From Escherichia coli (GTDB lineage Bacteria > Pseudomonadota > Gammaproteobacteria > Enterobacterales > Enterobacteriaceae): a stretch of DNA of 64,000 nucleotides. Within the stretch, counting starts at the first letter, position 1, and every line of letters starts with the position of its first letter. Position numbers: made by a program. The stretch lies in NCBI RefSeq assembly GCF_013122565.1, contig NZ_CP053258.1, one strand, 5' to 3'. Of this stretch, positions 17,292-18,169 are shown piece after piece.

Positions 17292-18169
17292 TAATGCGGA
17301 CACAGTGGCCCTCTCCGGCAAAACTTAATCTGTTTTTATACATTACCGGTCAGCGTGCGGATGGTTACCACACGCTGCAAACGCTGTTTCAGTTTCTTGA
17401 TTACGGCGACACCATCAGCATTGAGCTTCGTGACGATGGGGATATTCGTCTGTTAACGCCCGTTGAAGGCGTGGAACATGAAGATAACCTGATCGTTCGC
17501 GCAGCGCGGTTGTTGATGAAAACTGCGGCAGACAGCGGGCGTCTTCCGACGGGAAGCGGTGCGGATATCAGCATTGACAAGCGTTTGCCGATGGGCGGCG
17601 GTCTCGGCGGTGGTTCATCCAATGCCGCGACGGTCCTGGTGGCATTAAATCATCTCTGGCAATGCGGGCTAAGCATGGATGAGCTGGCGGAAATGGGGCT
17701 GACGCTGGGCGCAGATGTTCCTGTCTTTGTTCGGGGGCATGCCGCGTTTGCCGAAGGCGTTGGTGAAATACTCACGCCGGTGGATCCGCCAGAGAAGTGG
17801 TATCTGGTGGCACACCCTGGTGTAAGTATTCCGACTCCGGTGATTTTTAAAGATCCTGAACTCCCGCGCAATACGCCAAAAAGGTCAATAGAAACGTTGC
17901 TAAAATGTGAATTCAGCAATGATTGCGAGGTTATCGCAAGAAAACGTTTTCGCGAGGTTGATGCGGTGCTTTCCTGGCTGTTAGAATACGCCCCGTCGCG
18001 CCTGACTGGGACAGGGGCCTGTGTCTTTGCTGAATTTGATACAGAGTCTGAAGCCCGCCAGGTGCTAGAGCAAGCCCCGGAATGGCTCAATGGCTTTGTG
18101 GCGAAAGGCGTTAATCTTTCCCCATTGCACAGAGCCATGCTTTAAGCCGGGCAAGCTGAGTTTCGGTGA

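Follow-up and report, generated by a model that had tools for sequence, protein, structure and literature searches.

The 16-mer AAGAAAACGTTTTCGC embedded in the ispE coding sequence of Escherichia coli is very probably the PurR operator of the neighbouring prs gene, namely the 'prsA' PUR box of He, Choi and Zalkin (1993), and it adjoins a predicted and conserved promoter of this nucleotide-metabolism gene which is itself contained within ispE. The palindrome is almost certainly an already published PurR site and its recognition is correct but ordinary, the distant upstream PurR box of prs having been known since 1993 from publications as well as from RegulonDB. The analysis was performed on a window of 64 kb, by which the whole stretch of DNA analysed is meant, and the ispE-prs stretch within this window shares 99.8% identity with many complete E. 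coli genomes. The gene order around the site is prfA (-), hemA (-), lolB (+), ispE (+), prs (+) and dauA (+), and the relevant features, with positions counted from the first base of the window, are as follows:

16671-17294, + strand: lolB
17294-18145, + strand: ispE coding sequence, the host of the operator and the promoter
17921-18009, + strand: conserved DNA block of 89 bp in ispE, comprising a 17-bp upstream segment, the PUR box, the -35, the spacer, the -10 and the start (synonymous entropy and nucleotide profile)
17938-17953, no strand assigned: 16-bp PUR box, the probable PurR operator (sequence, position weight matrix (PWM) and orthologous conservation)
17940-17951, no strand assigned: 12-bp perfect palindromic core, GAAAAC/GTTTTC, with a central CpG (inverted repeat)
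17958-17963, + strand: -35 hexamer TTGATG of the predicted prs promoter inside ispE (sigma70-like scan; conservation)
17979-17987, + strand: extended -10 TGtTAGAAT, separated from the -35 by an 18-nt spacer (sigma70-like scan; conserved)
17994-17995, + strand: predicted prs transcription start, 7-8 nt past the -10 (from the promoter scan)
18296-19243, + strand: prs coding sequence, the putatively regulated gene, with a GTG start and coding for 315 amino acids
19368-21047, + strand: dauA

The start of prs was placed at the GTG at position 18296 since the gap between ispE and prs in E. coli MG1655 amounts to 151 bp. Relative to these genes, the PUR box is situated 644 nt into ispE, and is separated from the ispE stop by 190 nt and from the prs GTG by 343 nt. 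In the ispE reading frame it extends from the third base of codon 215 (1-based numbering; Ala) to codon 220, the codons being gcA AGA AAA CGT TTT CGC, which encode Ala-Arg-Lys-Arg-Phe-Arg (ARKRFR). The identical 16-mer is found in MG1655 at 1,262,218-1,262,233 of NC_000913.3 (complement). Thirteen of the approximately 5,430 ispE-prs matches in the E. coli collection occur on plasmid-labelled records, and some genomes carry up to three copies.

The preliminary description had reported a perfect 12-bp palindrome with a match to the PurR consensus at 12-13 of 16 positions, and both statements are borne out. The core GAAAACGTTTTC is a perfect palindrome which occurs once in the 64-kb window and in none of 100 dinucleotide-preserving shuffles, while AAGAAAACGTTTTCGC matches the idealised operator ACGCAAACGTTTGCGT at 12/16 and the ChIP-derived consensus ACGNAAACGTTTGCNT at 13/16 positions. 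In line with the former value, a search for ACGCAAACGTTTGCGT that allowed up to three mismatches did not return the site. The site thus has the make-up of a PUR box, a 16-bp dyad with a central CpG and a AAACGTTT-like core. Both half-sites are of the weaker GAAAAC type, with 27 of the 28 PurR sites used for matrix training (see below) having a G where the prs site has a T. Binding by another repressor of the LacI family, for example RbsR, which would couple the supply of ribose to PRPP synthesis, is very improbable. While PurR is derived from RbsR and has a closely related motif, according to a comparative-genomics paper, and ribose 5-phosphate is consumed by the prs product, the halves of the box, compared by eye, match the PurR half-site ACGNAAAC at 7/8 positions and the RbsR half-site AGCGAAAC at only 4-5/8, and literature support for RbsR at prs is absent.

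A PurR PWM was constructed from Table 1 of the ChIP-chip study of Cho et al. (2011), using its 28 motif instances, among which prs does not figure. When both strands of the 64-kb window were scored, the PUR box gave the highest match, with 16.2 bits in the oriented and 17.6 bits in the symmetrised form, against at most 13.1 (oriented) and 11.4 bits (symmetrised) for the next best. The latter match, ACGATAACGTTCGCAT at positions 27764-27779, scores below most real sites. In a leave-one-out ranking among the 28 in vivo sites, the prs box takes approximately the 21st place at 16.2 bits and the 15th at 17.6 bits, and falls in the mid-to-lower range. Between 0.08 and 0.19 matches of such a score are expected by chance per 64 kb, or 6-14 per genome. 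The matrix score, which the preliminary description had named as the check on its proposal, is by itself only suggestive and no proof, and the argument rests on position and conservation. Apart from the box, no motif of PurR grade occurs between lolB and prs, or indeed in the entire window, and it is on this ground that we infer its identity with the published prsA site. The earlier proposal that the PurR operator of prs lies inside ispE is thus supported, with uniqueness, conservation, synonymous constraint and a location more than 200 bp upstream of the gene all in agreement.

A scan of positions 17700-18400 revealed one sigma70-like promoter where 0.3 would be expected, with 9/12 hexamer matches and an extended -10. 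Every base of its -35 is conserved in at least 90%, and mostly in at least 97%, of 81 sequences. The PUR box ends 4 bp before this -35 and spans positions -56 to -41 relative to the predicted start, from which a prs leader of approximately 302 nt would extend up to the GTG at 18296. Hove-Jensen et al. are said to have mapped a prs leader of 302 nt by S1 analysis in 1986, in agreement with the predicted start. The operator had also been expected far upstream of the promoter; this stands with respect to the prs coding sequence, from which it is 343 bp removed, but not with respect to the promoter itself, as it is 4 bp from the -35. The position of the box, 343-358 bp upstream of the prs start, fits the published location, a passage of Ravcheev et al. 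placing the experimentally shown prsA PurR site (He et al.) more than 200 bp upstream from the start codon.

Conservation of the box was assessed in 80 ispE loci, one per Enterobacterales species, ranging from Escherichia, Citrobacter, Salmonella, Klebsiella, Enterobacter, Kosakonia and Cedecea out to Pectobacterium, Brenneria, Yersinia and Mixta, with IspE identities from 96% down to 75%. Enterobacterales are stated to possess PurR in a comparative-genomics paper. The DNA of the box, GCAAGAAAACGTTTTCG, is almost invariant in the 80 species, with the AGA codon retained in 80/80. The 16-mer is identical in 48 species, and in a further 21 it differs by a terminal C-to-T change that brings it closer to the consensus (20.3 bits). 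Changes of CGT to CGA or CGG affect a position that is also variable in real PurR sites. At the orthologous position, the 16-mer is the best match of its 3.8-kb locus in 77/80 species. Among the three exceptions, one locus (L046) reflects a one-codon mapping offset, while the other two, L070 and L071, are the most divergent metagenome-assembled genomes (Enterobacteriaceae/Cedecea; ~75% IspE identity), where a degraded box, AAGAAATCGGTTTTGY, scores 5.9-8.5 bits and encodes the peptide VRNRFC. In no other of the 80 species has the site clearly been lost.

Constraint at the DNA level was also evident from the codon alignment, in which the normalised synonymous entropy of the box codons is 0-0.35, versus an ispE mean of 0.66. 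All fifteen of the lowest 6-codon synonymous-entropy windows of ispE (0.04-0.18) fall in codons 211-232, corresponding to positions 17927-18007, which take in the box, the -35, the spacer, the -10 and the start. The nucleotide profile of 81 sequences shows near-total conservation of 17921-18009, except for the first few spacer bases. This 89-bp block is identical in 5397/5424 E. coli records (99.5%), while two ispE control stretches of equal length are identical in 72.8% and 73.2% of the records. The conservation of the block is not explained by shared ancestry, the remainder of ispE in these very genomes serving as the control.

As the box is part of a coding sequence, the palindrome might be a by-product of encoding ARKRFR and have no regulatory role. 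All 3456 synonymous encodings of this peptide were enumerated and scored with the PurR matrix. The real encoding ranks in the top 3.7% when the encodings are unweighted, while with weighting by codon usage 34% of the encodings score at least as high, which speaks for a by-product. With common Arg codons the result would be ACGCAAACGTTTTCGT, a site of 24 bits that is near-perfect, and the PWM match is not independent of the coding sequence, because ordinary ARKRFR codons yield a still better box. At codon 216 (17939-17941), the rare Arg codon AGA costs the site 2.6-3.8 bits; exchange for CGA would add 2.6 bits and for CGC 3.8 bits, and a change from AGA to AGG would cost just 1.6 bits, yet both CGA and AGG are absent in the 80 species. 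The synonymous positions are thus frozen, with a rare codon in every species, which argues against a by-product, as does the E. coli block identity of 99.5% versus ~73% for the controls. The peptide itself, furthermore, is not a fixed feature of the enzyme. Among 132 full-length IspE representatives of other lineages (42-59% identity), hypervariability is seen in the aligned segment, which has the form [VA]xxx[YFH]P, with VRRIYP, VRDHYP and VKKQHP as examples. Codon 220 (17951-17953) encodes Arg in the IspE of Enterobacterales, while nearly all of the 132 other representatives have Pro, and the overlapping operator may be what drove this Arg-for-Pro change.

The same RKRF core in a lineage of 61% GC is encoded by DNA with a site of just 4.0 bits, which likewise counts against a by-product of the peptide. 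Three more distant metagenomic lolB-ispE-prs loci score -21.3, -1.6 and -19.8 bits at the site, with nothing above 12 bits nearby. The nearest outgroup, with a genome of 1.15 Mb and 29% GC and an IspE identity of 59%, retains AAGAAAACGTTTCCCT at 17.7 bits, including the AGA codon. By these comparisons, the peptide ARKRFR is not needed by the enzyme and appears to have been fixed by the DNA element, and an origin of the palindrome as a coding by-product is extremely improbable. Strong purifying selection at the DNA level on the element over-rides freedom at the protein level. The palindrome was also considered as an RNA hairpin, and was rejected as such, with a folding energy of -7.9 kcal/mol (z = +0.37) that was equalled by 124 of 200 shuffles.

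The constraint on the block exceeds the prediction of the PurR matrix and reaches 17 bp upstream of the box, and PurR alone is not a full account of it. In this upstream segment, the synonymous sites are as conserved as those in the box, and it includes an inverted repeat, TTGCGA-N5-TCGCAA (17923-17939). An 8-nt direct repeat, GCGAGGTT, flanks the box at positions 17925 and 17952, the two copies being 27 bp apart. The upstream segment and the repeats could be the site of a second protein, could be UP-like in function or could have arisen by chance. It is conceivable, if unlikely, that the block has been kept mainly as promoter architecture, the A-tract/T-tract at -56 to -41 being UP-like or the site of another factor and PurR binding weakly and playing a minor physiological part, an arrangement which can coexist with PurR control. 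The excess of constraint over the matrix favours this, particularly as neither CGA (+2.6 bits) nor AGG (-1.6) ever occurs in the 80 species, as do the conserved 17 bp with their inverted repeat, the GCGAGGTT copies around the box, the absence of a ChIP-chip peak (see below) and the retention of the box in the reduced genome of 29% GC. The literature, however, records both the binding of PurR and a purR-dependent repression of prs, the variants that do occur are those which PurR sites tolerate or favour, and both the central CpG and the dyad symmetry would be superfluous for an UP element.

An operator function for PurR, the preferred reading, also draws on previous work. The study of He et al. 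(1993; J Bacteriol 175:3598) is cited among the evidence for PurR in a passage of the RegulonDB evidence paper, and passages in citing papers attribute to it the in vitro binding of PurR with hypoxanthine or guanine for prsA. Repression of prs by PurR is treated as established in engineering papers. As far as passages in such citing papers describe it, the prsA PUR box of He, Choi and Zalkin (1993) has the same gene, the same regulator and the same far-upstream location as the box analysed here, and the two are regarded as the same object. In the ChIP-chip data of Cho et al. (2011), the interval from purB (1.19 Mb) to purR (1.74 Mb), and hence ispE-prs, contains no listed PurR-bound region, nor is prs mentioned in the text of that paper, where genes with a more than 2-fold change in the purR mutant are discussed. 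The pyrC and glnB sites were likewise missed in this ChIP-chip study, and PurR occupancy at ispE-prs in vivo was below detection under the conditions used. Neither the 16-mer nor its reverse complement is quoted in any searchable full text, prs is not mentioned in the IPOD-HR paper or in the supplements of Ravcheev 2014 and the iModulon paper, the Salmonella MarA/SoxS paper is not about prs either, and the reviews and engineering papers contain no site coordinates for the prs PUR box.

Comparison with other PurR operators shows both shared and distinct traits. The purF operator (cvpA-purF), AAGAAAACGTTTGCGT, shares 14/16 bases with the prs box, including the left half-site AAGAAAAC, the central CpG and the dyad, but its right half is of the stronger GCAAAC type where the prs box has GAAAAC. 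At purF, the operator overlaps the core promoter, and repression is approximately 10-fold or greater. Unlike it, the prs box is situated upstream of the -35 and was not detected by ChIP-chip. The operators of purB and purR resemble the prs box in that they also occur in open reading frames and have weak effects, but these sites are downstream of the promoter of their own gene, whereas the prs box is located in the coding sequence of a neighbour and upstream of the -35 of its target. The pyrC and pyrD operators, like the prs box, lie upstream of the -35 hexamer, and mediate only ~2-fold repression. The pyrC site was similarly missed by ChIP-chip, while the pyrC and pyrD boxes are intergenic and the prs box is inside a coding sequence. 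The double GAAAAC half-sites, the sub-optimal AGA and a placement upstream of the -35 are all in keeping with a weak operator.

When hypoxanthine or guanine accumulates, a corepressor-bound dimer of PurR, a member of the LacI family, would occupy the palindrome. From its position at -56 to -41, PurR would most probably hinder the recruitment of RNA polymerase in part, through the upstream and -35 contacts of the latter. Such interference would be only partial, because the site abuts the -35 instead of covering the core promoter, and the predicted outcome is a modest repression of PRPP synthase. He et al. reportedly observed a 2-3-fold repression of prs in 1993. In addition, bound PurR might weakly block read-through from lolB-ispE into prs in the manner of a roadblock, which is possible because the site is in the path of lolB-ispE transcription, without an intervening terminator, and PurR acts in this manner at purB and purR. 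That the operator is chiefly such an intragenic roadblock, as at purB, halting RNA polymerase from upstream of lolB-ispE and lowering both read-through into prs and the amount of full-length ispE mRNA instead of affecting the promoter within ispE, is rather doubtful. The location of the site 644 nt into ispE is compatible with it, no terminator-like signal was found between ispE and prs in the scan of 17700-18400, and PurR is documented to stop elongation at sites within the purB and purR reading frames. The box, however, abuts a conserved -35/-10 pair, which favours an effect on initiation, and for an essential gene an internal roadblock would be costly.

The predicted prs leader as a whole is unusually structured (fold z = -3.05), and a search of 17800-18400 against Rfam returned no family at E <= 1. 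Just downstream of the ispE stop, a 9-bp helix (18158-18204) is supported by covariation, in which 18158-61 and 18164-68 pair with 18195-99 and 18201-04. In 80 distinct sequences, 97.9% of the cells of this helix are paired and 36 are double-compensatory (GC<->AU, CG<->UA), while shifted registers give 25-64% paired and 0-8 double-compensatory cells. A local hairpin, GGUGAC (18165-70)/GUCACC (18174-79), is paired in 90-94%, and shares its 5' strand with the leader helix. The helix and the hairpin are mutually exclusive, because they use the same 5' strand, and the pair looks like a switch or an attenuator. Further downstream, an invariant predicted hairpin at 18280-18299 brings together the prs Shine-Dalgarno GAGG (18285-88) and the GTG start region. 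Positions 18271-18344 are, as a whole, nearly invariant in the 81 sequences. The 89-bp block may contain more than a PurR site and a promoter. The operator may be held deliberately sub-optimal by its AGA codon, with the upstream dyad serving a second regulator or as an UP element, and together with the leader helix and its competing hairpin this would then point to a so far undescribed multi-input control of PRPP synthase, in which the pyrimidine-responsive control of prs might be included, a reading that is put forward as speculation with a small chance of being correct. We know of no worked-out mechanism for pyrimidine-responsive control of prs.

The ispE gene provides a quantified example of an operator and a promoter, located within a coding sequence, which freeze synonymous sites across a bacterial order. 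Codon optimisation or recoding of ispE, for example from AGA to CGN, would alter the operator, which is predicted to become 2.6-3.8 bits stronger, and a stronger operator after recoding could change the expression of the essential prs gene.
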